A stretch of DNA of 56,326 bases from an uncultured virus (IMG/VR IMGVR_UViG_3300006484_000005) (Duplodnaviria; Heunggongvirae; Uroviricota; Caudoviricetes). The stretch's first letter is position 1; each line of letters opens with the position of its first letter. Positions 15,068-44,770 of this stretch are shown piece by piece. The notes under the pieces were generated by a model. That model saw nothing but the letters and a program-made list of their open reading frames with translations, did not search any database and was not told where the DNA came from. The stretch is from positions 62,001 through 118,326 of IMG/VR virus record IMGVR_UViG_3300006484_000005. One strand, 5' to 3'. The position numbers and the translations under genes are program-made.

Positions 15068-16822
15068 TTATGCTGGGAAAGCAGCTCCAGTTGGTTGAAG
15101 AGTGAAATCTAAGATAATAAATTCAGCAGTTTTAGTAGGTTGAACATAAATCTGACCAACTAATTGATTACGATCAATTATGTCTGCTGTGTTGTTTGTA
15201 TCGTCCATTATTACTTTATAAGCAAATAATCCTTGACGTGAAACAACTTGTTCCATATATGGATTAACTACTGATAAGAAACGATTACGTGTGATTGCTG
15301 TATTTTGTTCAAATACTAATTCACGAGAAACTGATGAAACAAAGCGTTTCAAGTTAATCAATAAACGACGAACATTTACACGATCTAATGATGTAGCGCG
15401 TTTTTGGAATGTTTTCTGACCAAATGCTACAACACCATTTACTCCTGGGAATGTTGCTAATGGGTTAACATTTGCAGCATATAGTGAATCTCTATCAGTT
15501 GCTGATAATTTACGTTCTGCTTGAATTACTGAACCAATTCCACCACGATTTAAACCTGCTGGAGCGAACCATTCAGCACCTACTTGATCATTAAACGCAT
15601 ATACACCACCCATTACTACTGAAGGTGGAACCCATACTGGACGACCTAAATTAGCACTAAATGTTTGAACCCATGGCCAATATCCAGCACCATAATTTGA
15701 AGTTGAACCTGCTGCTGCTGCAATTGCATTTGTTTTAGTAGATCCATAAGCAACTAAGTCAGCAATTAAAAATGCATCACCTCTATCTTCTACAGTACTT
15801 ATAGCATTTGGACTAGAAATTTGGGCATCAGCTCCAACAAATAAACCTGGAGTTAATAACAAGTTAAAATCGTATTCGTCTTTATTTGTTAATAATGTTA
15901 AAGCTTTATGGTAATCTTCATCAATAAATCCTTGAGCTGTTGTAGATGTTGGAGTAATTGCATCAAAGAATAAACCTACTCTATTAGTTGCGGCTACACC
16001 ACCAGCAAATGACCCACCAAATGAACCAGAACCTGTTGAAGGCATTGATCCACTGTAAATAGCTGTTTTGAATACACCATCATTATCGATAGAATCAACA
16101 TTTGGTGTTGTAATTGATGCTATACGAACATAATTAGAAGCACCTGCAAATGAACCTGTAAGTTGGATATATGCTCCATCACCATTATCAGCAACATATA
16201 CTGGTTTTTGATCACCAATTACACGAGAAATAAAGTTTGGTTGTAATGGATCTAATGATAAGTTAGACCATGTTTCTAAAATATTTGGAGTTGAAGTTGT
16301 ATCATCTCCTCTACGAATTACAAGAGTAAATGTACCTTTTGAATAATCAGCATTTGAAACTTCCCAACGAACGTTTGCTGAAGATCCAGAAGCTAAAGCT
16401 CCACCTGCAGAAATTGAAGAAGAGTTATTAACTTCAGTTCCGTAGTTTTTAGATTCTAAAGTAAATGAAGCGTTACCTGATGTAGATAATGAAGAACCTG
16501 ATTGGTTAACAAATGCTTGAGCATATGTATTATTTGCAGATCCTGAAACAATACGAGTTACTAATAATGAACGACCTCCACCTGAGAAGTATTCTTTAGC
16601 AGCTAATGATGTAAAGTATTCAAAGTAATTGCTTCCTGATTTAAACTGATCTCCAAAGTTTGAAACATATTCAGAGTATGAGGTAACTACTGTAGGAATT
16701 AATGGGCGACCTTTAACTGTTGGTCCAACAAGTGCCGCTCCTGTTACAACAGGTCCTCTAGTAACTAATGACTTGTCACTTTCGTTAACAAATACATTAG
16801 GTGATATAATTTTTTCTGCCAT
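15068..16822 (-). CDS. Contractile tail sheath protein (T4 gp18-like)
   Basis: SPNVFVNESD N-terminus; YWPW, WFAPAGLNRG, FGQKT, RVNVRRL and PTKTAEFI sheath motifs. Confidence 0.92.
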   Translation of the reverse strand: MAEKIISPNVFVNESDKSLVTRGPVVTGAALVGPTVKGRPLIPTVVTSYSEYVSNFGDQFKSGSNYFEYFTSLAAKEYFSGGGRSLLVTRIVSGSANNTYAQAFVNQSGSSLSTSGNASFTLESKNYGTEVNNSSSISAGGALASGSSANVRWEVSNADYSKGTFTLVIRRGDDTTSTPNILETWSNLSLDPLQPNFISRVIGDQKPVYVADNGDGAYIQLTGSFAGASNYVRIASITTPNVDSIDNDGVFKTAIYSGSMPSTGSGSFGGSFAGGVAATNRVGLFFDAITPTSTTAQGFIDEDYHKALTLLTNKDEYDFNLLLTPGLFVGADAQISSPNAISTVEDRGDAFLIADLVAYGSTKTNAIAAAAGSTSNYGAGYWPWVQTFSANLGRPVWVPPSVVMGGVYAFNDQVGAEWFAPAGLNRGGIGSVIQAERKLSATDRDSLYAANVNPLATFPGVNGVVAFGQKTFQKRATSLDRVNVRRLLINLKRFVSSVSRELVFEQNTAITRNRFLSVVNPYMEQVVSRQGLFAYKVIMDDTNNTADIIDRNQLVGQIYVQPTKTAEFIILDFTLQPTGAAFPA

Positions 16823-16878
16823 TGCTATTTAATGATTATAATTTGGGTATTTCTACAATAAATATATGACAGATATTA

Positions 16879-16909
16879 TAAAACGAAGGCGAACTATGAA
16901 AGTTCGCCT
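16879..16909 (-). terminator. Rho-independent terminator overlapping the stop of 16894..17160
   Basis: Minus strand AGGCGAACT-TTCAT-AGTTCGCCT-TCGTTTT. Confidence 0.6.
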
Positions 16910-17160
16910 GTTTCTAAATTTATTGATCTGTCGGGGTATTGAGTTTTTAATTTTTCAACTAACTCAACTTCTTTTTCTTGAAGTTTTTCAAAACTAGATA
17001 TAAAATTATTAAATTCATCATCTAATCTTTTAACTTGTTTTTGAGCAAATTCACGTTGTAGTGAAAGTTCTCCAATTTGGTATGTTAGTACCTGAGAATC
17101 CTGTTGTAACTGCTTAATTTCAGCTAATTCTTCTTCTGTTATTTTTGTTTCTTTTATCAT
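16894..17160 (-). CDS. Small coiled-coil hypothetical protein
   Basis: 88 aa, heptad-rich, ending INLETGELS. Confidence 0.6.
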   Translation of the reverse strand: MIKETKITEEELAEIKQLQQDSQVLTYQIGELSLQREFAQKQVKRLDDEFNNFISSFEKLQEKEVELVEKLKTQYPDRSINLETGELS

Positions 17161-17169
17161 AATTTTATT

Positions 17170-17397
17170 TTATACGGGCCAATAATGCATTGGGCATGAT
17201 TTTTCTACTGGTGAGTACACTTTACCTTTTAATGGACATCCACATTTTCCACAATAATAAAAATTACCTACATCATTGTGTTTCATAAAAGGACATTCAT
17301 TGCATATAGCAATGCGTTGATCAGCTTTTTTTTGCTGTTCTTCTGTTGGATTAAATCCTATAATCCAAGATTTAGCAATTTCTAAAAACTTATTCAT
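17170..17397 (-). CDS. Small Cys-rich (zinc-binding) protein
   Basis: CxxC...CxxCGC...CP..W pattern. Confidence 0.65.
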   Translation of the reverse strand: MNKFLEIAKSWIIGFNPTEEQQKKADQRIAICNECPFMKHNDVGNFYYCGKCGCPLKGKVYSPVEKSCPMHYWPV

Positions 17398-17876: not shown

Positions 17877-17888
17877 TTTATAACTTTG

Positions 17889-19127
17889 TTATTTATTATA
17901 AATATAATTTTTTGATTTTTTTGTAGTTTTTGTTACTGACTTAATGGTATTTAAGACATTTTTATCTATCAAATCTGGATGTATCCACCAATCTTCAAAT
18001 GAAGATTTACCATCTGTAGATATATCATTTACAATTAATTCATATCCTTTAGATTTTAAATATTTTCTTGACTTATCACGATATGATTTTGTTTCATCAC
18101 AATAATGATCATGTTCGTATGTTATTACTGCAAATCGATATTTTTCAAATGGGATTTGTAGTAAGGCTTCAAATGTATTACGAGGTGGCTCACAATCTAA
18201 TTGCAAATAATCCCAATCATTTCCCCAATTTGTATCACTTAATATTTTATCATAATTAGCAACCGTAGCATCTTGTAATAAACAAAAATTATCTCTTATA
18301 CCGTTAAACTTGTTTACTAAATTATTATCAATTTCTAATGATACTCCTTTCCAATTGAAGTCCTTTTCTAAAATGTAAGTATTAGAATGAACAATAGGTT
18401 CGTGTGCACCGATTTCTAAATATTTTCCATTTGTTTTTCCATTCAATGCCATTAATACAAACATATCTTGAAAAACTTGGGATTGATTATTTTTTATTTT
18501 TTCTACTCCGTTAAATTTAAATCTTAAGTCATTTAATTTTGTAGAATCATAATATGATGGTTTCTCCCAATCTCCATTCCCCCATAAAAATGTAAGATTT
18601 CTTTTTACTGAATCAATATGGGTTTGAATCATTGGTTCATTATGATGTAAATCTAAAAATAAATTTAAAGATTCATCTATACGTCCTATCCACCACGAAC
18701 ATACAGCTTTTTCAAATTTAAAACCATATTTACCTGGGTATTCTACATCTATGTTTAATGAAGGTAAATCAAATTGACATACAGATTCAGCTAATGAAGA
18801 TATAGTATATGATTCTTGATATTCTTTACTCCATTCATATAAACGTGAAAGTAAAAAATAAGCTTCGGGACGTTTTGGTGAATGTGATATAGCATGTAAG
18901 TATAATCCTTTAGTTGAAAATATACGATCAGCTTGTTTTTCTAAACACAATCCAGCTCTAAGTAATGATGAGTAAACTAAATCACTATCTGATTCAGTTA
19001 TTCTTAAATAATAAGTTAAAGCAGATGCTGTTTGGTTTTGATCATAATATAAATTAGCTAAATCAAATATAACTTTATCATTATACGGATCATCTATAAA
19101 TTTATTTAATGCTTGTTGAATGCTCAT
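17889..19127 (-). CDS. TPR-repeat plus FkbM-family SAM methyltransferase fusion
   Basis: N-terminal TPR-like helices (FDLANLYY...P.RPEAYFLLSRLYE); C-terminal SQ..QD, YLEIGA...SNTY, DYLQLDCE and ITYEHD FkbM-like motifs. Confidence 0.7.
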   Translation of the reverse strand: MSIQQALNKFIDDPYNDKVIFDLANLYYDQNQTASALTYYLRITESDSDLVYSSLLRAGLCLEKQADRIFSTKGLYLHAISHSPKRPEAYFLLSRLYEWSKEYQESYTISSLAESVCQFDLPSLNIDVEYPGKYGFKFEKAVCSWWIGRIDESLNLFLDLHHNEPMIQTHIDSVKRNLTFLWGNGDWEKPSYYDSTKLNDLRFKFNGVEKIKNNQSQVFQDMFVLMALNGKTNGKYLEIGAHEPIVHSNTYILEKDFNWKGVSLEIDNNLVNKFNGIRDNFCLLQDATVANYDKILSDTNWGNDWDYLQLDCEPPRNTFEALLQIPFEKYRFAVITYEHDHYCDETKSYRDKSRKYLKSKGYELIVNDISTDGKSSFEDWWIHPDLIDKNVLNTIKSVTKTTKKSKNYIYNK

Positions 19128-20095
19128 ATTCCTGATAATGTTTTAAAATAATTTAAAGGTATGTTTAGTAAATAAGCAGCATTGTCTTCATATCCAAACG
19201 AAACTAATACATTATCATCTTTTACAGCTAATCCACAACAAAATTCAATATAACCAGTCATAAAATCAAATTCATCACTTGTATTTACTACATTCCAATC
19301 TTTATCCCACGTTACTATTCTATGTCGGTAAGTAGCTTCTTTATTATTATTTTTATTTTGCCATAAATCAACTTCATGTGTTATTGCTACTCGATAATCA
19401 CCAATAGTTATAACTTGACTTCCACCTCGTATATCGCGTTTAGTAGAATATGGCTTACCTAAAAATACTTGCTTGCATGTTTTATTAATTGGATCTACCT
19501 TAACAATTTCTGTTGGATTAGTCCATTTAACAAAATGATATGGCATATCTAAAATTGGCATCCAGTTTTTTTCACAATATGAATCGTTAGTAAATGGAGA
19601 AGGAATTCTAAATCGACTTATTTCTGTTACTTTATTATCTAGAATTTTTATTTCTGATAATTCCATTCGGCCTTCACCATTTGTTTTAGTATCTCGTCTT
19701 ACCCCACACACGTATAATTTATTATCCCATCTAACTAAACGAGCATCTTCTAAACCAACAAATTCCCAAACTGGTGTTATATCATATCTTGATGTATCTA
19801 TTTTATTAAATAAATCTATTAATAAATCATCATCTAATGAACAAAAATAATTAGTTGTTCTTAGTGTTATGTCGTTTTCTGGGTTTAGGTATGCTAATGG
19901 GCCATATCGATTTTCAAATTTACCTCTAGTATGATATAGTGTATATTGTACGTGGCGTAAATTTAAAATTAATTTTCCATTATCATTAAAAATGGATGGA
20001 TTCATTAATCCAGTTCCGTTTGTATCGGGATGAGAAATAATAAGGGGTACAATATTACCCCCATTTTTTATAACTTGTTTTGATAAATTTTTCAT
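19124..20095 (-). CDS. Predicted beta-propeller glycoside hydrolase/phosphorylase (GH130-like)
   Basis: NPSI, GLEDARL, EKNWMP, RGGSQ, IEFCCGL and VSFG.ED motifs. Confidence 0.6.
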   Translation of the reverse strand: MKNLSKQVIKNGGNIVPLIISHPDTNGTGLMNPSIFNDNGKLILNLRHVQYTLYHTRGKFENRYGPLAYLNPENDITLRTTNYFCSLDDDLLIDLFNKIDTSRYDITPVWEFVGLEDARLVRWDNKLYVCGVRRDTKTNGEGRMELSEIKILDNKVTEISRFRIPSPFTNDSYCEKNWMPILDMPYHFVKWTNPTEIVKVDPINKTCKQVFLGKPYSTKRDIRGGSQVITIGDYRVAITHEVDLWQNKNNNKEATYRHRIVTWDKDWNVVNTSDEFDFMTGYIEFCCGLAVKDDNVLVSFGYEDNAAYLLNIPLNYFKTLSGI

Positions 20096-20096
20096 C

Positions 20097-20678
20097 TTAT
20101 TTATAAGAACTCCCTCCCATCCATAAAACTAAACTTTTACGAGTGCCTTTAGTTATGGGTGTTACCCGATGCATTAAAAATGATGGGAATAAAATTGCAC
20201 ATCCTTGTTTACGCTCTACTTTTTGAAAATCACCTCCAGCCCATATTTCAAAATCACCACCTTCATACTTATTTGGGTCTGATAATTGAATAGAACAGCT
20301 AATTTTTCTATCATTAATACTTCCTGGTCCTATATCAATATGCCAATCATAATGACCACCACCTTCATAATAAACTGTGTATTGGATAGCATCTATTACT
20401 GAATGTAAGTTGAATTTCCACATTTCATTGTTTGCTTCTATAGCTAATTTGCATATTTTTTCATATACCCAAAATGATCTTTCATTATTGTGTAGCCATT
20501 TTATATTAGATTTACGAATATTATTATTTTCTCCGATAATTGTAGCTTCTTGGAATGGATATAATTCTTGTAAATTATTAATCCATTCTAATTCTTTAGC
20601 ATTAAATGCATCTTCGATAACATAATATCTTGTTTGGTCGATTGATTGATCCCTTGGAAATACTAATTTATTCTCCAT
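20097..20678 (-). CDS. 2OG-Fe(II) oxygenase (PKHD/prolyl-hydroxylase-like)
   Basis: WHID (HxD), RKIS, YEGGDF and FPSFLMHRVTPITKGTRKSLV (distal His, 2OG-binding Arg). Confidence 0.88.
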   Translation of the reverse strand: MENKLVFPRDQSIDQTRYYVIEDAFNAKELEWINNLQELYPFQEATIIGENNNIRKSNIKWLHNNERSFWVYEKICKLAIEANNEMWKFNLHSVIDAIQYTVYYEGGGHYDWHIDIGPGSINDRKISCSIQLSDPNKYEGGDFEIWAGGDFQKVERKQGCAILFPSFLMHRVTPITKGTRKSLVLWMGGSSYK

Positions 20679-21006
20679 ATAAATGTTTAATAATGATTGT
20701 TAATGAAATGCAAATCCATATTGTATTAAATAAAATTAATGTTGGTAATGATTTTCTCATTGATGCCCAAATTAATGAGGATGATGTTGCTAATGTTAAA
20801 AAATGCATATACCATAATTCAATACCAAATATCAATCCGGGAACGATGATAATTGCTTTTGCCATCCATGAGCAAAATTCGATCGTATTATAATCAGTCC
20901 AGTATTTTTTATCAAAATACATTTGGTACCGATTTAATATTTTATCATAACCAATAACAAAATATAATAAAGACAGGTAGGTAATAAAAATAATTGGGTA
21001 GATCAT
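20668..21006 (-). CDS. Small integral membrane protein
   Basis: 112 aa with 3-4 hydrophobic segments; overlaps the oxygenase start by 11 nt. Confidence 0.6.
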   Translation of the reverse strand: MIYPIIFITYLSLLYFVIGYDKILNRYQMYFDKKYWTDYNTIEFCSWMAKAIIIVPGLIFGIELWYMHFLTLATSSSLIWASMRKSLPTLILFNTIWICISLTIIIKHLYGE

Positions 21007-21024
21007 AACGTATTTTTATAAATT

Positions 21025-22590
21025 TTATAACTCTAACATATATTCAATGAATACACTATGCTTCATAAACATATGCTCATTTAATAACATATTTACTTTA
21101 AATTTACTACGGTGTATTGCCATTTCTTCTCGTCGCATATCAGATAACATAGCTTCTAAACATTCAACTGCAATTTTTGGTTGCAGTAATTTTAAACCTG
21201 CAAGAATTGAATACCAACTTGGAATACCATATGCTAATAATTTACGTCTTGATGTTAAAAACATCTCATCTGGAATTGTTACTTCACATTCATCTAATAA
21301 TTCTTTAACACGTTCAGGTATTTTATTTTTGTCCCTGAATTCAGTCCAAAATTTACTTGTTGATCTTTGAGTTAAATAATGGGTGTAAATAAATTCCATA
21401 TTTTCTCCATTTATAGAACGCATTCGTTCATTATATCGATCAATATAAAATTGCTTTCTGATGATAGCTCCTAAGTTATTATCTAAATATGATGTAAGAG
21501 CTATAACTTGAAGCATAATTGATGTAGCCTCTAAAGGTTCGATAAAACCAGACGATAAGCCAATAGCAACACAATTTTTTACCCATGGAGTTTCATACAT
21601 ACCAGCTTCAAAGTCAAATTCTTTTCCCCACTTAATATCGGTTCCGAATTTTTGAATTATTTCTTCTTTAGCTTCTTCAACGGTTATATAATCTGAGTCA
21701 AAAACATACCCACATCCGAATCTATCTTGAATAGGTATTTTCCAAACCCAACCACATTCCATTGCTATTGATTCTGTATATGGAGGAATTTCATCTAAAT
21801 CATCTAAATCCATAAAGAAACCAATAGCTTTCTTCATTGGTAGGTGTTCTTTATATGATATCCATTTTGATTTATATAATCCACCAATAATTAATCTTTT
21901 AAATCCAGAGCAATCAAATACAAAATCGGATTTTATTTCTTCTCCTTTTTTAGTTGTGATGTATTTAATGTATTCATTTTCATCTAATACAAAATCAACT
22001 ACTTCATCATCAATATGGACTATTTCTCGTTTAAGAGCAACTTCCTTTAAATAATTAGCTAATAACACAGCATCAAAATGAACAGCATGTGATCCCATTT
22101 GATCTAAATGGGATTTAGCATTATCTAATTTATTGTTAATGTTTTGGTTTGGTGTGTATTTTACTCTATTAGATTTATTAAGTTTAGAATCAATAAAGAT
22201 TTCATTAAGATTTCTACCATACCCTACAGGTTCTAAAGCAAGACCTGGTAGCATTTGGCCAGTAGGATTGTCAAATTTAAATGGATTGAAATTATCGTGA
22301 TTAGCAAATCCATGGAAATACGACTCTCCATCTCCATTCCAATTAGTAAATTCAATACCATTTTTAACAGTTGCTTTAGCATATTTAAATAAACCCTCAA
22401 ATGGTATCCCTAAATTCTCTAAGGCAGCTAGTACATTAGGAGTAGTACCTTCACCAGCACCTAATATTCCGATATCAGAACTTGAAATTACTCTTACTTT
22501 AGTAAATGGATAATATTTTTGAAGATAAAGTGCAGTTAACCACCCTGCGGTTCCTGAACCTACTACTGTAAAATTGTAAATTTGTGACAT
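21025..22590 (-). CDS. Flavin-dependent (tryptophan-halogenase-family) halogenase
   Basis: GSGTAG FAD motif, GAGEGT, ATVKNGI (catalytic Lys position), DCSGF, WVWKIP (WxWxIP) and FIEPLEATSI. Confidence 0.88.
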   Translation of the reverse strand: MSQIYNFTVVGSGTAGWLTALYLQKYYPFTKVRVISSSDIGILGAGEGTTPNVLAALENLGIPFEGLFKYAKATVKNGIEFTNWNGDGESYFHGFANHDNFNPFKFDNPTGQMLPGLALEPVGYGRNLNEIFIDSKLNKSNRVKYTPNQNINNKLDNAKSHLDQMGSHAVHFDAVLLANYLKEVALKREIVHIDDEVVDFVLDENEYIKYITTKKGEEIKSDFVFDCSGFKRLIIGGLYKSKWISYKEHLPMKKAIGFFMDLDDLDEIPPYTESIAMECGWVWKIPIQDRFGCGYVFDSDYITVEEAKEEIIQKFGTDIKWGKEFDFEAGMYETPWVKNCVAIGLSSGFIEPLEATSIMLQVIALTSYLDNNLGAIIRKQFYIDRYNERMRSINGENMEFIYTHYLTQRSTSKFWTEFRDKNKIPERVKELLDECEVTIPDEMFLTSRRKLLAYGIPSWYSILAGLKLLQPKIAVECLEAMLSDMRREEMAIHRSKFKVNMLLNEHMFMKHSVFIEYMLEL

Positions 22591-22604
22591 AACTTATTTT
22601 TATT

Positions 22605-23033: not shown

Positions 23034-23039
23034 ATTATT

Positions 23040-24047
23040 TTACGTCGAAAATGTGCCTGAACTATTGAATGTATGATATGTATAACCACCACCTGAAGAT
23101 ATACTTCCACCATTACAAACTTGACCTCCAGCGTATCTAACTCTTACAATGCCCGAACCTCCACTACCATTTCTTCCAGGAGCACCAACGTGAGCTATAC
23201 CACCTCCACCACCTCCAGTGTTTGCACCTCCTGGATCTGATGATTGCCATACGTTATCATAATTATTTCCACCACTTGATGCTCCTTTTCCACCACCACC
23301 TGCACCTCCAGGAGCAGACCAGTTCCAATCCCAGTTACCTCCTCCTCCACCACCTCCATAATAAGCACCAAAATCATTTACGTATCTTCCATCACCACCT
23401 CGACCACCTATAGGATCACCTAAACAAGTATTTGCTCCAGTAGCTCCAGTTCCTCCACCTCCGCCACCTCCAGCTTGACAATTTGCATTACCTCCTGGAT
23501 TACCAAATCCTCCTGGGTATGAGGGTAGTCCTTGTTTTCCATTATTTCCTTGATTTCCATTTATACCACCACCACCTCCACACCCACCATTTTCACCAAT
23601 ACCTAAATCTACCCCTTTAGCGTCGCCATAACTAGATCCACCACCACCACCACCATTTATAGAGATACCTCCAAAATTACAATCACCTCCATTAGCTCCT
23701 TTATCATTATCATCTACCCATCGTGAACCAGCAAATGCACCACCTCCACTAACACCAACACCAAATGAACTACATCTACTTACTGCGTATGAGGACAAAT
23801 GAACCTGACCTCCGGCTCCACCTCCACCACCACCACCTGGCCATCCTCCACCTCCACCACCACCTGCGGCTTGTACCATTAAGGCAATAGTGACTGTATT
23901 AGAATATCCAAAAAATTCACTCATTGAGTCAGAAGTACCCTTTCCAGCCTTAGAACTCAATGATCGTAATGAATAAGAACTACCACAGTTTATTAACTCA
24001 TTTCTAATTTGTGATATTGAAATTGCTCCTGAACCTTGTAATGCCAT
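23040..24047 (-). CDS. Glycine-rich virion/fibre-associated protein
   Basis: Repeated poly-Gly tracts, ANTGGGGGG, GGSGIVRVRY and YHTFNSSGTF; N-terminal MALQGSGAISISQI. Confidence 0.65.
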   Translation of the reverse strand: MALQGSGAISISQIRNELINCGSSYSLRSLSSKAGKGTSDSMSEFFGYSNTVTIALMVQAAGGGGGGGWPGGGGGGGAGGQVHLSSYAVSRCSSFGVGVSGGGAFAGSRWVDDNDKGANGGDCNFGGISINGGGGGGSSYGDAKGVDLGIGENGGCGGGGGINGNQGNNGKQGLPSYPGGFGNPGGNANCQAGGGGGGGTGATGANTCLGDPIGGRGGDGRYVNDFGAYYGGGGGGGNWDWNWSAPGGAGGGGKGASSGGNNYDNVWQSSDPGGANTGGGGGGIAHVGAPGRNGSGGSGIVRVRYAGGQVCNGGSISSGGGYTYHTFNSSGTFST

Positions 24048-33600: not shown

Positions 33601-35576
33601 TCAGTTATATAATTTCTACCATTTACTTCTAATGAACCTGTTACATTGATAGATCCTGTAAATTGGTGAGTGTTTGAAAGTAATGAACCAAATTGAGTAG
33701 ATCCAGTTATGTATTCTGTAGAAGAAGTAATAGTCTGGGCTACAATTGTTTGTGCAGTTAATGTTCCTCTTACTGTAAAATTATCAGCAGATGAAGCGGT
33801 AGCAGCATTAGAAGCTGTTAATGCTTGAGTAGCATAACTTGATGTTCCTGATATTGAACCCGTAAATGAACCGGTAAAAGAACCAGTCATAAATGATCCA
33901 CTGAATGAATTAAAGCTAGCTGATAGAGTAGATATACTAGCACTATTAGTTGTTATTCTAGAAGCAAACGATGAACTTTCGCTTACATAACTTCCTGAAA
34001 AATTAGCAAATGAGGAACTGTTTGTAGTAATTCTACCAGTAAACGAAGATGATTCGTTTACATAGCTTCCTGAAAAGCCAGCAAATGATGAACTATTAAC
34101 TCTTATCCTATCAGCAAATGATGAAGATTCACTTACATAACTTCCAGAAAAATTAGCAAATGAAGAGCTGTTAGTTGTAACTCTACCAGCAAATGATGAT
34201 GATTCGCTTATGTAACTTCCAGAAAATGAAGCAAATGAGGAACTGTTTGTAGTAACTCTACCAGCAAATGATGATGATTCGTTTATGTAACTTCCAGAAA
34301 ATGAAACAAATGATGAACTATTAGTTGTAATTCTACCCGCAAGTGAGGAACTTTCGTTAATGTAACTTCCAGAAAAATTAGCAAATGAGGAACTGTTTGT
34401 AGTAACTCTACCAGCAAATGATGAACTTTCACTTATATAACTTCCTGAAAATGAAGCAAGTGATGAGCTATTTGTAGTAATTCGTGATTCAAATGATGAT
34501 GAATCGTTTATGTAATTTCTACCATTTACTTCTAGTGAACCTGTTATACCAACACTTCCTGTAAATTGGTGGGTATTTGAAAGTAATGATCCATTTTTAG
34601 TTGAACCTGTAATAAATTCAGTTGATGATGTTATAGTTTGTGCAACTATAGTTTGAGCAGTTAATGTACCAGCTACTGTAAAATTATCAGCATATGAAGA
34701 GGTTGCAGCATACGATGAAGAAACAGCTACTGATGCTGTACCTTGCAATGATCCTGTAAATGATTGAGCTATAACACTACCACTAACATCCAAACTACCA
34801 GTCATTTGATGAAGGTTATTTGGATTTAATTGTAATTTTCTATTAGCGTTATTGTCAATACCACCAGCAAAGAATTGTATTGGGTAATTTGAGGCATTAC
34901 CAATATGTAAATCGTTACCTGTAGAGTATAGATAAGCATCATTAGCATCACCTACTGAACCAGTAAATGTGCTGCTATTAATACCCATATCAATATAATT
35001 CATTAATTCGGTACCATTATCTGCAGTAGCAACTACATCAGAAGAAGAATTAGAACCTGAAAGTAAATTTTGTATATTAAATTGGGAATAATTATCAATA
35101 TACGAGGTAGCTTTTATTAAATTATATAATGAAGTATAACCAGCTTCAATTAATACTTTTTCATTTGCTATTGAATTAGGAGGAAATGAACTTAAAATAA
35201 AACTACCTGATTTAGTAAATGTAGCTACTCTAGAACCACTAATATAAATTGATAAATCATGATTAGATAATGTACCTAATATTCTATTTGAATCACCCCC
35301 AGTAAAAGTATTACCTCCGATTGCCCAAGCATTATCAGCATAAGAAGCAGTACCAAATAAACTACCAGTTATACCTTGAACAACTGTAAGAGAACCAGAA
35401 ATTGTTTGATTTCCTGTAAATGTATTGGAACCACTAATAGCAGCACTACCTGTAATAAAATCATTTTTATTTACAGCATCCCATAATCTAGTAGAACCAT
35501 TAAATACAGGTACATATCCATCTTGTGGAGTGGATATTTTAATTTCTACGGGTCTTCTTCCTACTATTTTCGACAT
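30693..35576 (-). CDS. Long Ser-rich repetitive tail fibre-like protein
   Basis: 1627 aa; four copies of the shared module, two blocks of 25-aa repeats and an internally duplicated domain. Confidence 0.7.
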   Translation of the reverse strand: MSKIVGRRPVEIKISTPQDGYVPVFNGSTRLWDAVNKNDFITGSAAISGSNTFTGNQTISGSLTVVQGITGSLFGTASYADNAWAIGGNTFTGGDSNRILGTLSNHDLSIYISGSRVATFTKSGSFILSSFPPNSIANEKVLIEAGYTSLYNLIKATSYIDNYSQFNIQNLLSGSNSSSDVVATADNGTELMNYIDMGINSSTFTGSVGDANDAYLYSTGNDLHIGNASNYPIQFFAGGIDNNANRKLQLNPNNLHQMTGSLDVSGSVIAQSFTGSLQGTASVAVSSSYAATSSYADNFTVAGTLTAQTIVAQTITSSTEFITGSTKNGSLLSNTHQFTGSVGITGSLEVNGRNYINDSSSFESRITTNSSSLASFSGSYISESSSFAGRVTTNSSSFANFSGSYINESSSLAGRITTNSSSFVSFSGSYINESSSFAGRVTTNSSSFASFSGSYISESSSFAGRVTTNSSSFANFSGSYVSESSSFADRIRVNSSSFAGFSGSYVNESSSFTGRITTNSSSFANFSGSYVSESSSFASRITTNSASISTLSASFNSFSGSFMTGSFTGSFTGSISGTSSYATQALTASNAATASSADNFTVRGTLTAQTIVAQTITSSTEYITGSTQFGSLLSNTHQFTGSINVTGSLEVNGRNYITDSSSFASRITTDSSSFANYSGSYINESASFASRITTNSSSLSSFSSSYVSESSSFASRVTTNSSSFASFSGSYVTESSSFASRIATNSASLSSFSGSYVTESSSFASRITTNSSSLASFSGSYVTESSSFAAKIAADSASFTNFSGSYVNESSSFASRIATNSSSFASFSGSYVSESSSFDYRINNISSSLGSFTSSFSTGSFTGSFTGSLFGTASYATRALSASYAESAPNYLPLAGGTMTGDIYAAGRSFTFQDLLLGAGTTFGKITTDGSKYISIMPTYNVESARFWSNGNVTIQDAGTYVDNGFRLDVSGSGRFTNGLTVTGSLNVTNGITGSLFGTSSYAINALSSSFATSASYWSGSIINAATASYVLQAVSASYAATASFVAGISNGTASLANTASYAISASYSATASSADDFTVRGTLTAQTIVAQTITSSIDFVTGSTKNGSLLTNTHEFTGSVGITGSLAVNGSDYTTTSGSASTRLTALESFSGVYSTGSFTGSFNGRVTGSFSGSLYNLQNSIVGHIPFFSSSQVLADSIVRQLDNGSGSFSIVINQDNITTAAPEALYVYQPSTTSYNVISGKGNLNNYLQLNIQNTNTGENASSDVVATANNGNESVNYIDMGINSEGFTGSIGDANDAYLYSTGNHLHIGNASNQYVGFFAGGPDVDTHMKLLLAPSNAHELTGSLTVTEKLNVLGGVTASLQGTASVAVSSSYAATSSYANNFTVAGTLTAQTINVQTITSSIEFNTGSTRNGSTTTNTHQFTGSVLVTGSTEITGSVRVRGGYNQSGTDSNLFNGSTTFGSPVTVNSTLDAANGFQVSANAARIYNSASIGKSTNPNAVLDVNGSVLITGSLVVTQGITGSLQGTASYATQALSASYWSGSITNAATASYVQTAQTASYVLNAVSASYASTASYLNPIENSYLVLSQVSQSLNFADDTAAASGGVPLGGLYRNGNFILIRIV
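33015..33612 (-). repeat. Tandem 75-bp (25-aa) repeat, block 2, about 8 units
   Basis: Consensus YVxESSSFASRITTNSSSFASFSGS. Confidence 0.85.
33915..34514 (-). repeat. Tandem 75-bp (25-aa) repeat, block 1, about 8 units
   Basis: Consensus YIxESSSFAGRVTTNSSSFANFSGS. Confidence 0.85.
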
Positions 35577-35585: not shown

Positions 35586-35927
35586 TTAGTTAATTGCGTT
35601 TTCAAGAACAGATAATACTACATCTAAGCTACCGCTAACAGATGTTTTAATAACAAATGCATCATTTTTTTCTAATACAATCTTACCAGCTAGTGGATTT
35701 AATGATTCATATATAGGAATTACACCATTTCTTAATAAAGTTATTTGTGAAGCTGATCCACTTTTTTGAATTGCTACATCGCAATACTGAATTGATGATG
35801 TATTAACGTTAGTAATCTGACAAGATAATATAATAGTTGCTACGTCTATATTTTCTTGGTATATAGTATTACTACCAGAAGCTAAAGTAGTGGTTAATAA
35901 TCGGAATTTATTTAAAGGTAATGCCAT
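35586..35927 (-). CDS. Small virion structural protein, fibre associated
   Basis: 113-aa beta-rich ORF (GKIVLEKND...LDVVLSVLE) between fibre genes. Confidence 0.55.
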   Translation of the reverse strand: MALPLNKFRLLTTTLASGSNTIYQENIDVATIILSCQITNVNTSSIQYCDVAIQKSGSASQITLLRNGVIPIYESLNPLAGKIVLEKNDAFVIKTSVSGSLDVVLSVLENAIN

Positions 35928-35931
35928 ATCT

Positions 35932-38124
35932 TTATGAGTAAGTTTCTAATGCTAAATTTATTGGAGTTATTTGTGCTGTGATTGCTTTAGTAAATGTTCT
36001 ACCTTCAATCGTTCCTGTTGCTTGTCTGATGATGAAATCATTACCAGCATAAAAGTCACCTGTTTCGTCACCCGATGTATGGAATACTCTACCTCCAGTT
36101 TCTTCAAATATTCTTAATGCTACGTTTGTTTCACCAACACCGCCTTGGTTTATTGGTAGTGCTAAAAAGTTAACACCAGCACCAGCATATGAAAAGTCAT
36201 GTGATGTTGATGTGATTAATGAACCAAATTCTTGTAGATATTGGGCTCCAGCTCCGTTTACAACTACTTGAGTAATTGTACTAATTAATACATCAAATAA
36301 TTGTCCTACTTTATTTTTAGCAGGAGTAGTCATTGTTGAAAAATTACCTGATGGGTCGGTTACAATATATTCTTTCATATATTGCCATGCTAAAATAAAA
36401 TCACCAGTTAATGATCCACTTGCATTTGATACGTTTTGTGGTATAATCGATATTGCACCTTCTGTAAAAGAAGAGCCTGATGCTATTGGTAATGTAAAAA
36501 CACTACCTGATGATGTATCTTGTCCTTTAAATAGACCTGAGATAAATTGTGATGTGCGAGCAGCTCCTGGGGCTAATAAATCATCAGCAATGGCATCAAT
36601 TAATAATCCACTATCTTTAATTGTTGATGAATATTGAGAACCACTTCCACTTACATATGTTGATGCAAAACTACCAGATTGTACTAGTTTATTTATCATA
36701 TATGTTTGAATGTTTGTTTTATTAGCACTTACTAATAATGAACCAGAAGTAGATATTGAAGCACTTACAGCACTTATATCTGGTTTGACTAGCATTCTTA
36801 GTCCTTTAGCTCTTAATCCAAAGTCGCCAAATGTAGTATTTGAGTTTAGTAATGATGCGTGTCCACCTTCAATACAATAAGTACCTACACGTGAAAAGTT
36901 AGTAAAAAACGATACTAATTGAGCATATCCTCTACCTCTAACACATATACCAATTCCGTTAAATGCTACCTGTGTGTATGCATCCACAATCATTGATTTA
37001 AGTGGAGAATATCCATCTAAAACTGAATCGTCTACTATCATACCACCTGGACCGTTTCCAATTAATGGATTAGCTGAACCTGAATTTAATGGTGTATAAA
37101 ATTTATCTGCTGGTGTTGAAATAGCAGAACAGTTTTGGACATAAGGTGAAGTAACGATTGATGCACTTGGAGCAAATGCAAAGAAGAAACCATTTCTTGG
37201 ATCTTCTAAATCATCAATTCTACATCCTTCTAAACGTAATCCATAACAATAAGTTCCATTATTCATTAAGAATAAATTCGAACCTGATGTCGCTGTTGTT
37301 GGAGATACTACTACTGATCTTAAATCATCACCTAATATAGATACGTTTGGTGGAACTGTAATAGGTGCTTCTTCTGTATAATATCCACTTTTAACTTGAA
37401 TACTTTGTCGGTATGCTGGAAGTCCTGGATTAGCAGCTCTTGAAGCAGATGCTGCAATTGCAGCTGCTTTTATAGTTCTAAATGGAGATGATAATGTCTT
37501 ACCATCATTTGTATCTAATCCGTCTTCGGCTACATAGAATACTTTTTCAACTACACCAATATCTGTTATTCCAGCACCCGAACCACTTAAATTAGTTGCT
37601 ATTAAAGTACCACCTACAGTAAATGAACCAGTAGCAAATATTGAACCGGTAAATTGATGTGTATTTGATAATTGAGAACCAAATCTAGTAGAACCAGTAA
37701 TAAATTCTGTTGAAGAAGTTATTGTTTGGACAACAATGGTTTGAGCGGTTAAGGTACCGCGTACTGTAAAATTATCAGCAGATGAAGCAGTTGCAGCGAA
37801 TGAAGAGGAAACAGCGTTTGACGAAGTTCCAGCGGACATTCCTGGTACTGATGACGCTGAAAGGGCGAATGATGCTGTTAAAGCATATGACGCAGAAATA
37901 GCGTTTGATGCTGATACTGCAAATGAAGCAGAAGTAGCAAAAGATGCAGATGCTGCTAAAGAAGCGGTTTCTCCGACAGCAACTATAGCTGCTGTTCCAT
38001 TATCTAGTTTTAAATATAGTTTACCGTCGTATGTGTTTAATGCGATTTCACCTAATTCTAGTTGTTCTACACTAGGTATACGACCAGGTACAGCACTTCT
38101 TTTAAGCCTGATATTTTGAGACAT
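35932..38124 (-). CDS. Fibre/spike protein with a putative beta-helix (pectin-lyase-like) domain
   Basis: N-terminal IRLKRS..PG..P....LGEIALNT.DGKLY fibre-attachment motif; FYVA.DG.D.NDG...PFRTIKAA and GDDLRSV..P beta-helix entry motifs. Confidence 0.65.
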   Translation of the reverse strand: MSQNIRLKRSAVPGRIPSVEQLELGEIALNTYDGKLYLKLDNGTAAIVAVGETASLAASASFATSASFAVSASNAISASYALTASFALSASSVPGMSAGTSSNAVSSSFAATASSADNFTVRGTLTAQTIVVQTITSSTEFITGSTRFGSQLSNTHQFTGSIFATGSFTVGGTLIATNLSGSGAGITDIGVVEKVFYVAEDGLDTNDGKTLSSPFRTIKAAAIAASASRAANPGLPAYRQSIQVKSGYYTEEAPITVPPNVSILGDDLRSVVVSPTTATSGSNLFLMNNGTYCYGLRLEGCRIDDLEDPRNGFFFAFAPSASIVTSPYVQNCSAISTPADKFYTPLNSGSANPLIGNGPGGMIVDDSVLDGYSPLKSMIVDAYTQVAFNGIGICVRGRGYAQLVSFFTNFSRVGTYCIEGGHASLLNSNTTFGDFGLRAKGLRMLVKPDISAVSASISTSGSLLVSANKTNIQTYMINKLVQSGSFASTYVSGSGSQYSSTIKDSGLLIDAIADDLLAPGAARTSQFISGLFKGQDTSSGSVFTLPIASGSSFTEGAISIIPQNVSNASGSLTGDFILAWQYMKEYIVTDPSGNFSTMTTPAKNKVGQLFDVLISTITQVVVNGAGAQYLQEFGSLITSTSHDFSYAGAGVNFLALPINQGGVGETNVALRIFEETGGRVFHTSGDETGDFYAGNDFIIRQATGTIEGRTFTKAITAQITPINLALETYS

Positions 38125-38173
38125 TTGCTAATTTTTACAGTATATACTTCAAGACACCTATATAAGGGCTGTG

Positions 38174-38182
38174 TATAAATAT
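38174..38182 (-). promoter_or_regulatory. Putative late promoter motif ATATTTATA heading the fibre operon
   Basis: Exact motif, intergenic. Confidence 0.6.
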
Positions 38183-38203
38183 CGGTAAAAATAGAAATAT
38201 TAA

Positions 38204-38437
38204 TTAGAAAGTTCCACCATCTAATCCACCAGTAACAGTAAGTGAACTACTTGCTACATTTAATGAATCTACATCAAATATTGAACCAGAAATAGATAAA
38301 GCAGGAATGCTTGGATTAACTTGTCGCACTACAGCAGAACCAGTTATTATTAAACTACCAGACATTAATAACCGCAATGGATCATTTGGATCTAATCTAA
38401 GTGGAGATAATATTTGGTCTAATGTAATTAAAGGCAT
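38204..38437 (-). CDS. Small hypothetical virion protein
   Basis: 77 aa, SGS/TGS-rich, ending DGGTF. Confidence 0.5.
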   Translation of the reverse strand: MPLITLDQILSPLRLDPNDPLRLLMSGSLIITGSAVVRQVNPSIPALSISGSIFDVDSLNVASSSLTVTGGLDGGTF

Positions 38438-38438
38438 G

Positions 38439-40168: not shown

Positions 40169-40169
40169 A

Positions 40170-40499: not shown

Positions 40500-40500
40500 A

Positions 40501-41655
40501 TTAAAATATATAAAGCGGTAATGGAACTTGTTGTAAAGTTTGATTTACAAATCCTTCATCCATTGAGCGTTTTTCTAATTGTTTTGTTCTAGAAGAATCT
40601 TCTAATGTCCCACGTAATTGTTCTAATAATGCTATTTTTTCAGAACGAGCATCAGTTAATAAATCAGCTTGATTTAATGTTACTTCAGATCCTGGAATAG
40701 GTACAGTAGTATATTTACCACGTACATATGCTAGCATTTCTTTTACTAATGCTAATGTATATTGGAATACCCACATTTTACCTACTGAATTAATCTGAGA
40801 ATATACTGGGTTATTGTAAGGTACGTTAGACACGTTTGTAACCAAATTGGTAGCTGATCCACTTATAAATGATTGATTACGTTCTGATTTTTTGATATAG
40901 TGAAATATTAATGTAGTATCTGCTGTAGGAATTGGAAATAATCTTAATTGATTATTTACTAAATCAAATGAAAATGCTGATTTTCTAACTTGATCGTTTA
41001 ATTCAATTGCTTGTAGCTTCAACATATCAAAGTTCAACGGCATTAACATAAAGTTAATACCTGGAGAAAATGATCCAAAATTAAATGATTCTAACAATGA
41101 TTGTATACCTGTACCTGTACCAGCATATGGATCAAAATAACGAACAATAGCTGGAGGTGTTTGTTGAAATACTGTTTTTACTTCAATTGAATCACCTGGT
41201 TGTAATGATGCAGATGCGGATGCCCAAGTATTTAAATCATAATTTTGTACTCCTGCAGTTACAGGCATAGAAGCCGTATAATAAGTTACTGTACCACCAG
41301 TTCCTGCTTCAGAACCATAAGTAGAAGCTATTTTGATTGTAGTTGATAAATTGGGAGTAATTACTCGGTTATTTAGAACAGATCCAGTTGAAGATCCTTC
41401 TATCGAAATATAATTTTCTCTAATTTTCCATTGATATACTTCGTTTCCGTATACTGTAATTGCTTCTTCGAATGCAGTATAGAATTGTATATCTTGTAAT
41501 TCGATATTTTCAATTGGATATCCTAAACGCTGTGCACACCATTTTACTACTTTATCAGCATCAGTTCTGAATGTTGAATCAGCATCATAAAACCCAAATG
41601 GAGTTGATCCAGTAGTAAAAAAAGATGAACCAGTATATATTGCTATGTTAGCCAT
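40501..41655 (-). CDS. Neck/head-tail adaptor protein (T4 gp13-like)
   Basis: RLGYPI.NIEL, LRLFPIP and YTLAL.KEML..VRGKY..VPIPG..VTLN motifs. Confidence 0.75.
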   Translation of the reverse strand: MANIAIYTGSSFFTTGSTPFGFYDADSTFRTDADKVVKWCAQRLGYPIENIELQDIQFYTAFEEAITVYGNEVYQWKIRENYISIEGSSTGSVLNNRVITPNLSTTIKIASTYGSEAGTGGTVTYYTASMPVTAGVQNYDLNTWASASASLQPGDSIEVKTVFQQTPPAIVRYFDPYAGTGTGIQSLLESFNFGSFSPGINFMLMPLNFDMLKLQAIELNDQVRKSAFSFDLVNNQLRLFPIPTADTTLIFHYIKKSERNQSFISGSATNLVTNVSNVPYNNPVYSQINSVGKMWVFQYTLALVKEMLAYVRGKYTTVPIPGSEVTLNQADLLTDARSEKIALLEQLRGTLEDSSRTKQLEKRSMDEGFVNQTLQQVPLPLYIF

Positions 41656-41677
41656 TAATCAAATATGTAGTGTTTGT

Positions 41678-41686
41678 TATAAATAT
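41678..41686 (-). promoter_or_regulatory. Putative late promoter motif ATATTTATA heading the neck operon
   Basis: Exact motif, intergenic. Confidence 0.6.
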
Positions 41687-41704
41687 TAAGATTTTTTATT
41701 ATAA

Positions 41705-42295
41705 TTAAAAACCGTTTGTTGCTGGGTTGTAGAATACTCTACCTGTTACATTTGTTGTTTTAGTTATTGTAGGTGTTGAATAATTAAATGTCATTGCATC
41801 CCCACCACCAGCTTCACCAAACTGTATTCTTATTGGATAATATATACCCGAGGTGAGAGAAATAGTTCCACTGGTTTCTTGAACAGCGTGTGCACCACCA
41901 TTATTTACTGTTGCATTTGCAGTTGTAAATCCAGATAACGCATTTGGACCTACCCAAACATAAGAAGCATCATCACTTGCTGTAAAAAATGTATAAGTTT
42001 CTGTTGTAGAAGGTAAAAAATAACCTAACCACTGACAACTAAAGTTTGAACCATCGTCACTGCCAGCTTCAGAAATTGCAGTAGTTTGTACAGAAGTTGC
42101 AGGATTAGTACCGTATGTTCCTGGTGTTGCCGTTGCAAAAAATGATGGAACATCAGAAAAATATCCAGCATATGTTGTTTTATATAAACCAGCACTATAT
42201 GTAATAGAGATTCTAATATTTAACCCACCACTATTAGTATTATTTACTAATGAAAATCCTCCATTACCGTTTGTGTTTAATAATGTTAAAGGCAT
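41705..42295 (-). CDS. PA14-domain (carbohydrate-binding) protein
   Basis: NFSCQWLGYF, YTFFTASDDASYVWV, NNGGAH and YYPIRIQFGE.GGG are diagnostic PA14 motifs. Confidence 0.8.
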   Translation of the reverse strand: MPLTLLNTNGNGGFSLVNNTNSGGLNIRISITYSAGLYKTTYAGYFSDVPSFFATATPGTYGTNPATSVQTTAISEAGSDDGSNFSCQWLGYFLPSTTETYTFFTASDDASYVWVGPNALSGFTTANATVNNGGAHAVQETSGTISLTSGIYYPIRIQFGEAGGGDAMTFNYSTPTITKTTNVTGRVFYNPATNGF

Positions 42296-43005
42296 TACAT
42301 ATGTTCTTTATACATGTTTAAGACTGATTCCACAATTGGATGTCTGTGATTTGTTTTTAATACAACGGATGCTACTCCTGGAATGGAACCAGCAACTTGT
42401 TTTGATAGAAAATACATACCAGAGTCTTTTTTGTTTTTTAAATCGACTTGAGATGTATCGCCTACAATCACCATTTTACTTCCTTTACATAAACGAGATA
42501 TTACCATTTCCATTTGAGGATCAGTAACGTTTTGTGCCTCGTCTACAATAATAAATGCATTTGAGAAGTTACGTCCACGCATAAATGCAAATGGAACAAT
42601 TTCTATTTGTCCTCGCTCAAAGTACATATCCACTTTTTCTTTATCGTATACTCGATATGCATTGTCGTATATTGGAGCAACGAATGGATCTAATTTTTCT
42701 TTAATACCACCAGGTAAAAAACCAATTTCTTCTTTAGCTGTTACTACTGGTCTTGCTATAATGATCTTTTCAACTTCTTTGTTAAATAATAGATCTAGCG
42801 CTGTTTGGACTGCCACTAATGTTTTACCACTTCCTGCTTGTCCTGTAATGACTGTTATGTCATTAACTAAAATTATACTTTTTGTTTCTTTTTGTTCTTC
42901 GTTTAGTTGAACTTGAAACTTAATTGGATTTTTAGGTTTACGTTTTTCCTGAAAAATCGCATCAGTGTGGTGATTTGAACTCATAAAACTTGTTTTAGTT
43001 ATCAT
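42295..43005 (-). CDS. phoH: PhoH-family ATPase
   Basis: GQAGSGKT Walker A, IGFLPG, FMRGRNF, DEAQN, GD..Q.D and HRHP. The true start may be ATG 42984. Confidence 0.92.
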   Translation of the reverse strand: MITKTSFMSSNHHTDAIFQEKRKPKNPIKFQVQLNEEQKETKSIILVNDITVITGQAGSGKTLVAVQTALDLLFNKEVEKIIIARPVVTAKEEIGFLPGGIKEKLDPFVAPIYDNAYRVYDKEKVDMYFERGQIEIVPFAFMRGRNFSNAFIIVDEAQNVTDPQMEMVISRLCKGSKMVIVGDTSQVDLKNKKDSGMYFLSKQVAGSIPGVASVVLKTNHRHPIVESVLNMYKEHM

Positions 43006-43041
43006 TAATAAATATGTAAAGATTTATTTATTGCAATAAAC

Positions 43042-43077
43042 AAAAGAAGGCCGGAGCTTAGCTCCGACCTTACTTTT
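43042..43077 (-). terminator. Rho-independent terminator after the major capsid gene
   Basis: Minus strand AAGGTCGGAGC-TAA-GCTCCGGCCTT-CTTTTG. Confidence 0.75.
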
Positions 43078-43096
43078 ATTCTAAAAATTAGAAATA

Positions 43097-44770
43097 TTAG
43101 TATCCTAATGTCTCTAAACCGTGTACAAATACGCGACCGTAGAATTCAGGACGAACCATTTTCTTAGCGTAACGAGTCATCAAACCTTTACGTGGAGTAA
43201 ATGTTTCTGGATCGTATACTAATGGAGTCATGATCAACGGAATGTATGGAGCATAAACAGCACCAGTTTCAAGGAATTGAGATCCTTTATAACCCATCAA
43301 AATCATGTTAGAAGTTAAATAAGGATTCTTATAAACTTTGTAACGAGAATTTAATGAACCAATTTTCTGGATACCGAATCCGAATTCTGATTTCTCACCA
43401 TCACCGTCAGTAGCAAATCCTGGAATAGATTCTAATACTGTAGCAATTGCTGGAGAACAAACCATAAAGTTAGCACCACCACGCAATGTCTTTTGGTGAA
43501 TTTTGTTAGAAACTTGTTGCAATACAGTTCCGATAGTTTGGAACCATTCGCCTTGAGAATTGTAATATCCAGTTAAGTTACCTGATTGAGAGTTAGCAGA
43601 TACAGTTGTGAAACCTGAACCGTTCCAGAATGTATTGTTAGCAGCTGACCAGTAACCAGTAGTAGCAGCATTTTCTTGCAACATACCTAACAACTCCAAA
43701 TCAACTTCCATTGCAATGTAGTTAGACAACATAGAAGTTACTTCTGATTCAGCATCTACCGAGTGGTAAGCGTTCAAATCTTGAGCAAATTCTGGAGTCC
43801 ATTGTGCTTTCAACTTACGAGTCTTAGCAACGATTGATTCAGATTTTAATTTGATATCAATTGAAGGGATAGCAATTGATGATGAGCTTTCAGCGTTTGG
43901 ATATCCAGCACCTGAAGCATCTTCGAAATCACCGCGAGCAGCAACTGTAGTAGTTTTAGGGTAGTATACTTGGTAAACTTGAGAAGAACCAGTAGCACCA
44001 ACAACTGAACCAGAGATTATTACTGTAACAGTACCATCAGCGTTCAATGTAGAAAATTCGTTCAATACGTTATCAGCTGTCAAAGTAGAACCTGAAACGA
44101 TAGCGATTGATTTTACTGCAGATGTATCTAAAGCAGCTAAAGCACCTGAAGCAAATGTAATAGAGCGAGCTGAAGAACCAACTGAAGCAGAAACTGCTGA
44201 GTTGTAATTCCAGTTAGCTAATGTCAAAGCAGATGCTGAAGTACCAGCGATAACTGATTGAGTAGTATTGATTGAATAACCATATCTACCATCACCATAC
44301 AAACCACCAGCAACTTCTAAGTTTTTAACGTTTGGATGATTTTCAGCTTGGTTACCATATAAAGAAGTAGTTCCGAATTCTTTTTTACCAGCTCCATCAG
44401 CAGATAATCCTAAGTTTGAATATTTGAAATCCAAATAGAATACTAGACCTGAAGGTAAAGACATTGGTTGTACAGAAACGAATTCTTTAGCAACGATTTC
44501 ACCGAATACACGGCGAACTAACGGAAGAGCAACACCAGCCCAGTTCTCACCAGCACCACCTGACATTGATGATTGACCACCAGTCACGTTTGCTTCTTGA
44601 ACCAATGCTTTAGCTTGGTTTTCCAAAATTACCGCCATATTGTTGCGGTCATACTCACTATTAAGGTTTTTCAATAAACCTGTTTTTTCCCATTTTCCAA
44701 CTAATTTGCCAGCTTCTGCTTGACGATCTTGGAACGGGTTTGCGCTTTCTAAAAGACTTTGTACGTTCAT
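43097..44770 (-). CDS. Major capsid protein (T4 gp23-like)
   Basis: LPLVRRVF, VSVQPM..PSGLVFYL, TRKLKAQWTPEFAQDLNAYH, YAPYIPL and PRKGLMTRY. Confidence 0.95.
   Translation of the reverse strand: MNVQSLLESANPFQDRQAEAGKLVGKWEKTGLLKNLNSEYDRNNMAVILENQAKALVQEANVTGGQSSMSGGAGENWAGVALPLVRRVFGEIVAKEFVSVQPMSLPSGLVFYLDFKYSNLGLSADGAGKKEFGTTSLYGNQAENHPNVKNLEVAGGLYGDGRYGYSINTTQSVIAGTSASALTLANWNYNSAVSASVGSSARSITFASGALAALDTSAVKSIAIVSGSTLTADNVLNEFSTLNADGTVTVIISGSVVGATGSSQVYQVYYPKTTTVAARGDFEDASGAGYPNAESSSSIAIPSIDIKLKSESIVAKTRKLKAQWTPEFAQDLNAYHSVDAESEVTSMLSNYIAMEVDLELLGMLQENAATTGYWSAANNTFWNGSGFTTVSANSQSGNLTGYYNSQGEWFQTIGTVLQQVSNKIHQKTLRGGANFMVCSPAIATVLESIPGFATDGDGEKSEFGFGIQKIGSLNSRYKVYKNPYLTSNMILMGYKGSQFLETGAVYAPYIPLIMTPLVYDPETFTPRKGLMTRYAKKMVRPEFYGRVFVHGLETLGY

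Follow-up and report, generated by a model that had tools for sequence, protein, structure and literature searches.

A candidate Ser/Thr-Gly/Ala-Ser sequon for phage-encoded O-glycosylation on outer virion proteins of a T4-like phage lineage

Why should one short, hydroxyl-rich tripeptide recur in unrelated structural proteins of a single phage? The question is raised by a 56,326-nucleotide stretch of an uncultured virus, positions 62,001 to 118,326 of IMG/VR record IMGVR_UViG_3300006484_000005, which we refer to in its entirety as the window. It forms the final 56 kb of a 118-kb record with an estimated completeness of 71%; each of its 52 main open reading frames (ORFs) is on the minus strand, among them a T4-like morphogenesis module of capsid, neck, fiber, sheath and tube genes. 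A sequence-only reading had drawn attention to the tripeptide [ST]-[GAS]-S in proteins encoded between 15068 and 44770, and suggested that it serves either as a modification site or as a docking site. Our analysis indicates that a stricter form, [ST]-[GA]-S, probably serves as a sequon at which phage enzymes O-glycosylate the virion, the most likely writer being a family 4 glycosyltransferase, GT4b, acting with or after its neighbor GT4a.

Expected counts were taken from 1000 composition shuffles of each protein. The tail sheath (15068-16822; gp18-like according to Pfam PF04984/PF17482, an AF2 model and a Foldseek match to the T4 sheath) contains nine [ST][GAS]S sites where 3.3 are expected, and eight [ST]GS sites where 1.0 is expected (p<=0.001). 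The neck protein or head-tail adaptor (40501-41655; phrog_211) has seven against 1.3, while two small proteins, one of 113 aa (35586-35927; phrog_1276, unknown function; three of its sites are SGS) and one of 77 aa (38204-38437), have five against 0.6 and four against 0.7. Four fibers carry the largest numbers: 81 against 22.7 in a 1290-aa repetitive protein named fiber-like from its repeats and position, with no family match (26769-30641), 131 against 43.0 in a 1627-aa repetitive fiber-like protein, also with no family match (30693-35576), 28 against 7.1 in a 730-aa protein with PHROG tail fiber matches (35932-38124), and 22 against 4.6 in a fiber with collagen-like GPT repeats and an S74 chaperone (24413-26536). 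These fiber counts are inflated by internal repeats and so are not independent. The major capsid protein (43097-44770) is marginal on its own (7 against 3.1, p=0.04), and residues 178-260 within its variable insertion hold five [ST][GA]S sites; when seven clade genomes are pooled the [ST][GA]S excess is clear for the capsid (33 against 10.8), as it is for sheath (52 against 13.4) and neck (30 against 5.7). Two further genes reach p<0.03, each on two SSS-type matches, and are treated as noise among 52 tests. All of the tripeptide sites quoted in the sequence-only reading are present, and the enrichment it claimed survives shuffling in every protein class named above, with the capsid as the marginal case.

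The motif is also ordered. Enrichment of [ST]-[GA]-S over composition is 3.5- to 6-fold in sheath, neck, fibers and the two small proteins, and across the nine motif genes the middle position favors Gly (6.0-fold) and Ala (3.5-fold), with Ser reaching only 1.8-fold; the middle Ser of the motif as originally proposed is therefore best dropped. At the third position Ser is strongly preferred in the same genes (SGS 63 observed against 13.6 expected, TGS 81 against 10.4, SAS 40 against 13.1, TAS 38 against 9.1), and versions ending in Thr are rare (SGT 5 against 10.4, SAT 3 against 9.1). In the five non-fiber motif proteins SGS ranks first of all tripeptides (14 against 1.6). Selection acts on the protein, since the 144 [ST]GS sites are spread over 49 different nonamers with codon use like the background, which rules out a DNA-level motif. 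At 9 of 11 orthologous sheath sites, the third Ser is encoded by both TCN and AGY codons.

Where the sites lie can be followed best in the sheath. Each of 67 distinct sheaths (non-identical and >=520 aa long, kept from 80 matches) carries 4-12 [ST]GS against about 1 expected, some fixed and others turning over. They are concentrated at residues 56-290 (8.7 against 1.6 per protein), and the core, residues 291-584, has no excess (0.19 against 0.45); all nine sites of the source phage fall at residues 62-267. In T4 gp18, domains I-II face solution and domain IV the interior (according to an extract of PMC3004832). The motif-bearing region corresponds for the most part to domains I-II, as mapped approximately via Pfam boundaries, and site 62 may belong to domain III. 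An alignment-based AF2 model (mean pLDDT 64; a single-sequence fold reached pLDDT 30) matches the T4 sheath and places seven of the nine sites in coil. In the capsids of nine motif-bearing genomes every site falls at 127-265, at alignment positions that differ between lineages, between two blocks matching T4 gp23, a stretch that we take to be the outer insertion region. By homology, then, the motif appears confined to outer parts of sheath and capsid.

How bare are the remaining proteins? The hub-like 1509-aa, 802-aa and tape-measure genes (3332-13398; labels from synteny with phage immuto) are Ser-rich and motif-poor in this genome, with one site against 6.1 in the hub-like protein and two against 3.0 in the tape measure. 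Depletion in these two draws on related genomes: across the seven clade genomes, the tape measure has 5 against 13.0 and the hub 5 against 11.6 (six genomes), alongside 0 against 2.8 for portal and 0 against 0.9 for tube, and the tube lacks the motif in all ten genomes with a tube match. Individually, the portal, tube and scaffold of the source phage are uninformative because fewer than one site is expected in each. Non-virion proteins show 81 against 102, beside 113 against 103 for a control with Thr in third place, and 207 against 167 and 225 against 166 in motif-poor genomes. The near-absence from buried and non-virion proteins that had been noted by eye thus stands for hub and tape measure, is not informative for portal, tube and scaffold, and is weak for non-virion proteins. 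The accompanying view that the motif sits on outward-facing proteins agrees with the outer sheath and capsid regions, yet two probably exposed proteins are motif-poor (23040-24047, 0 against 2.7; 41705-42295, 1 against 1.5).

Relatives of the source phage (genome G000, contig C1) offer a search space for the writer. Ranked by capsid identity they are Flavobacterium phage immuto 2-6A (55%, the closest cultured), Mel-JY01 (49%), LR756508 (46%) and Rhodothermus phage RM378 (35%); the G-numbered relatives G023, G025, G017, G032 and G043 are IMG/VR genomes. Gene order is syntenic with immuto, a Bacteroidota host is inferred, and the source phage is probably a member of a genus related to Immutovirus, a comparison based on capsid identity and gene order. 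The lineage is large: clustered at 90% identity, its sheaths still form 7,980 clusters or more. Mel-JY01 (PP395634.1) has Microcystis as its host on record; its capsid, gene order and glycosyltransferase (GT) cluster group it with the Flavobacterium phage immuto, and the host assignment may be worth checking.

As the sequence-only reading had cautioned, Pfam finds no glycosyltransferase in the window (30 of 52 ORFs scanned). Elsewhere in the genome there are about 11 matches, one of them weak, in two sugar clusters plus a single GT4. GT4a (G000:C1:12488-13930) and GT4b (G000:C1:11182-12495) are adjacent and head the first sugar cluster; a small GT2 comes next, and variable sugar genes after it. 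The same GT4a-GT4b-headed variable cluster occurs in immuto, Mel-JY01, G023, G025, G017, G032 and G043, with GT2s, GT10, methyltransferases, UDP-galactopyranose mutase and an RmlD-like reductase among the downstream genes; in the closest cultured relatives, immuto among them, these genes differ from those of the source phage and motif sites are fewer. In several lineages GT4a is split into two ORFs, for its N- and C-terminal halves (G043:C1:18920-20444, G042, Mel-JY01 83441-84932). GT4b clusters are 96-100% viral in Atlas, and a scan of cellular genomes, an insensitive one confirmed against the divergent RM378 sequence, gave three weak loci in metagenome-assembled genomes. The immuto glycosyltransferases are unlikely to be DNA-directed, since liquid chromatography-mass spectrometry of its DNA lists only dA, dC, dT and formyl-preQ1 (fdPreQ1) (passages of bioRxiv 2023.04.13.536721).

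The motif and GT4b occur together. With an enriched protein defined as one having at least three [ST][GA]S sites at p<0.005, the source phage has 8 of 137, and its G-numbered relatives 11/216 (G023), 10/202 (G017), 6/215 (G032), 9/204 (G025), 23/336 (G043) and 5/85 (G012); immuto has 7/215, RM378 5/148 and Mel-JY01 2/92 (80 of 190 kb read). Motif-poor genomes include LR756508 (0/654; 474 of 484 kb), G056 (0/202), G009 (0/76), Xoo-sp13 (0/62; 50 of 309 kb), G010 (1/239) and G055 (2/186). A search of 34 records with a GT4b profile gave 9 matches, eight of full length and a partial one in G055. All complete genomes tested that bear the motif, immuto and RM378 included, have full-length GT4b, and the profile found none in the whole of LR756508, the whole of Xoo-sp13 or G010. 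Most remaining misses are fragments (clade B was searched as fragments 26-66% complete), where absence is uninformative because sheath-centered fragments of clade C missed GT4b too. LR756508 retains GT4a and lacks GT4b. In a capsid tree it falls inside RM378, in one group with Mel-JY01 and clades A and C (SH-like support 97), a node that a slower tree leaves unresolved, and RM378, though more distant, keeps both GT4b and motif-enriched proteins; nested in this way among motif-bearing phages, LR756508 suggests a joint loss of GT4b and motif.

Other genes follow the motif less well. A core-family profile was built of 59 families, from immuto ORFs with blastp matches in at least five of six genomes; only GT4b and the small GT2 combine presence in RM378 and Mel-JY01 with absence from LR756508 and G010. 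For a prospective sample, six records from distant lineages of the same supergroup were picked by GT4b alone out of 23 searched, mainly for length. All six carry GT4a and GT4b, and five have 3-7 enriched proteins. None of the six (one complete, five motif-bearing) yielded the small GT2, which was rejected as a required writer.

In the scheme that we favor, GT4b would work in the cytoplasm of the infected cell with a nucleotide sugar as donor and, with or after GT4a, would prime a Ser/Thr hydroxyl of accessible [ST]-[GA]-S loops on virion subunits with a first sugar, which variable downstream enzymes would then extend and cap in a strain-specific manner. The outcome would be a dense sugar coat over head, neck, sheath, baseplate and fibers, leaving tube, portal, hub and tape measure largely bare; such a coat might serve for shielding or to control adsorption. 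This scheme is supported by the ordered, protein-level motif, its recurrence in unrelated folds, its outer placement and its co-distribution with GT4b. Several observations weigh against it. A virion glycan at the motif is a prediction from sequence and gene distribution; exposure is read from homology, the sheath model has a mean pLDDT of 64, and loops favor Gly/Ser tripeptides anyway; and motif avoidance in non-virion proteins is weak. GT4b has no characterized close relative, the best solved match being chlorovirus B736L (E 1e-6; GT4a, E 4e-7), weak and over the nucleotide-binding half only, and although 12 of 14 GT4b rows read keep the EX7E motif, those of RM378 and G043 lack its second Glu. 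G068 carries GT4b, yet has no enriched protein in the 60 kb read (sheath 7 against 2.8); enriched proteins occur without full-length GT4b in G055 (two) and G010 (one); and the sheath and capsid of RM378 lack the motif. Lastly, because the trees of GT4b and of the capsid largely agree, the link between motif and enzyme comes down to roughly a single gain and a single loss, and so to few independent events.

Could the tripeptide be nothing more than a structural preference, a beta-turn or triple-beta-repeat element that was amplified in fibers and inherited with loops, with the GT cluster acting elsewhere, for example on the host surface? The coil placement of most sheath sites, the position of fiber sites within repeats and the vertical inheritance of both motif and GT4b would fit, but we consider this unlikely: the LR756508 orthologues fold with the motif near expectation (sheath 1 against 1.0, neck 0 against 0.2, capsid 1 against 0.7), as do clade B sheaths (0.6 against 1.1), turn propensity would not predict a strict third Ser, rather than Thr, in unrelated folds, and LR756508 lost motif and GT4b together. 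There is a similarly small chance that the sites are modified by another writer or chemistry, the candidates being kinases, phospho-sugar transferases, enzymes of the host and phage genes that have diverged beyond the reach of the profile. GT4b activity is a prediction, and fast-evolving genes would be missed by a family profile that began from immuto ORFs with matches in most genomes. The general O-glycosylation signal of Bacteroidota is D-[ST]-[AILMVT], however, and neither this (14 against 20.4) nor N-X-S/T (121 against 111) is enriched; the motif is kept across phages of Flavobacterium and Rhodothermus, and no further enzyme family tracked it.

Docking of a coat-forming protein that decorates or cements the particle, the other option of the sequence-only reading, would suit the outer position of the motif on several virion parts and the small motif-bearing proteins of 77 and 113 aa. 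We judge it very improbable, because a single fiber can hold as many as 131 sites, positions turn over freely and no non-enzyme family tracked the motif; three small residues would also offer little binding surface. The idea of a modification site fares better, in that an ordered motif in outer regions can be tied to a phage-specific GT4 gene, though not to the enzyme cluster first suggested. A further candidate writer is a GT60 polypeptide GlcNAc-transferase homologue (G000:C1:29899-31164; PF11397, E 1e-71), and characterized GT60 enzymes do act on polypeptides. It is nevertheless absent from motif-bearing G023, G025, immuto, RM378 and Mel-JY01, and also from G024, is present in motif-poor G010, G056 and Xoo-sp13, and tracks Thr-Pro repeats instead; its distribution fails to follow the motif, and we hardly credit it as writer of [ST]-[GA]-S.

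What GT60 does accompany may be a second system. Thr-Pro mucin-like or GPT collagen repeat proteins occur in 9 of 10 GT60-bearing genomes, G043 being the exception, and in none of 12 genomes with no GT60 match (several partly read). GT60 and the Thr-Pro/GPT repeats of the fiber at 24413-26536, its candidate substrate, likely form a second virion O-glycosylation system. The GT60-bearing set includes the cultured Xanthomonas phage Xoo-sp13. In a sister clade, the clade B jumbo phage G055 encodes a GT4 fused to an Aah/TibC O-heptosyltransferase domain (L497, G055:C1:139790-142078; TIGR04414, 220 bits, cut-off 200) among virion-like genes; sheaths of this clade favor [FY]-[ST]-G and [ST]-G-T over [ST]GS. 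Tentatively, several orthogonal cytoplasmic systems could coexist across these phages, namely GT4b with [ST]-[GA]-S, GT60 with Thr-Pro and the sister-clade Aah/TibC-type heptosyltransferase, their motifs evolving where sugar is wanted and so forming a readable glycosylation code. Long Gly-Ser-Ser/Gly-Thr-Ser triplet repeats, with collagen-like periodicity and no Pro, were also seen (G025:C1:45144-60078, G055:C1:135047-136669).

To our knowledge, virion glycosylation in phages has been described in a single group, and no site signal that could be transferred to others came with it. In mycobacteriophage virions, capsid and tail tube subunits reportedly bear glycans at their C-termini (Freeman et al. 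2023, as cited in passages of PMC12619734 and PMC12582341). There, too, phage-encoded glycosyltransferases are proposed to coat virion proteins; unlike those sites, the ones described here, in another phage group and predicted from sequence, are internal, fall in many unrelated proteins and none in the tube, and share a short ordered motif. A second parallel is the priming of serine-rich repeats by GtfA/GtfB (as described in sections of PMC6973325), with two adjacent GT-B genes, alternating-serine Ser/Thr acceptors and a conserved priming core followed by variable extending glycosyltransferases. GT4a and GT4b have no NCBIfam or Pfam match to the GtfA/GtfB family (DUF1975), however; both phage proteins mostly keep EX7E, where GtfA/GtfB has one non-catalytic partner, and the phage has dispersed tripeptides instead of one long repeat and no accessory Sec system. 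Chlorovirus capsid glycosylation likewise uses a virus-encoded cytoplasmic pathway, and supplies B736L as the best solved match, but is N-linked to Asn with no recognizable sequence pattern, in a eukaryotic virus (as far as an extract of PMC4691112 goes). Immuto, which is syntenic with the source phage, resembles it in having GT4a, GT4b and motif-enriched proteins. The literature searched holds no report of a virion glycan in the closest cultured relatives, and no paper describing the [ST]-[GA]-S motif was found in the open literature (listings and abstract starts, with subscription papers and supplements outside).

If the scheme is correct, a very large aquatic phage lineage bears a dense, genetically predictable sugar coat, with a bearing on adsorption, persistence and structural models of the particles, and a soluble O-glycosyltransferase of one or two enzymes, addressed by a tag of three residues, would become available for glycoengineering. 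It is directly testable, because cultured immuto 2-6A and RM378 carry both motif and GT4b.

The enzyme cluster at 17889-22590, inside the structural region, had been linked to the motif by the sequence-only reading. It comprises a TPR protein, a GH130-like lead, a 2OG-Fe(II) oxygenase, a membrane protein and a Trp halogenase. Apart from a single 2OG-Fe(II) oxygenase match, it has no homologue in G023, G017, G032, G025 and the compared parts of immuto; since these motif-bearing relatives nearly lack it, it was rejected as the writer and placed outside the motif system. Of the co-occurrence of motif with glycosyltransferase/TPR clusters that was proposed as a check across relatives, the GT4b part held and the part concerning the TPR-containing cluster in the window did not. 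The product of 19124-20095 looks like a GH130-type propeller, with PF04041 on 32% of one Atlas cluster's members and no Pfam or PDB match of its own, and the C-terminal half of the adjoining TPR protein is methyltransferase-like by eye. Elsewhere in the source genome, G000:C1:31706-32416 and 52304-54775 include a GTP cyclohydrolase I identified by Pfam and, judged by eye, QueC- and QueD-like genes, which suggests 7-deazaguanine DNA modification as in immuto. Finally, G023 encodes a tandem pair of major-capsid-protein paralogues (G023:C1:60985-64400), with the motif in both.

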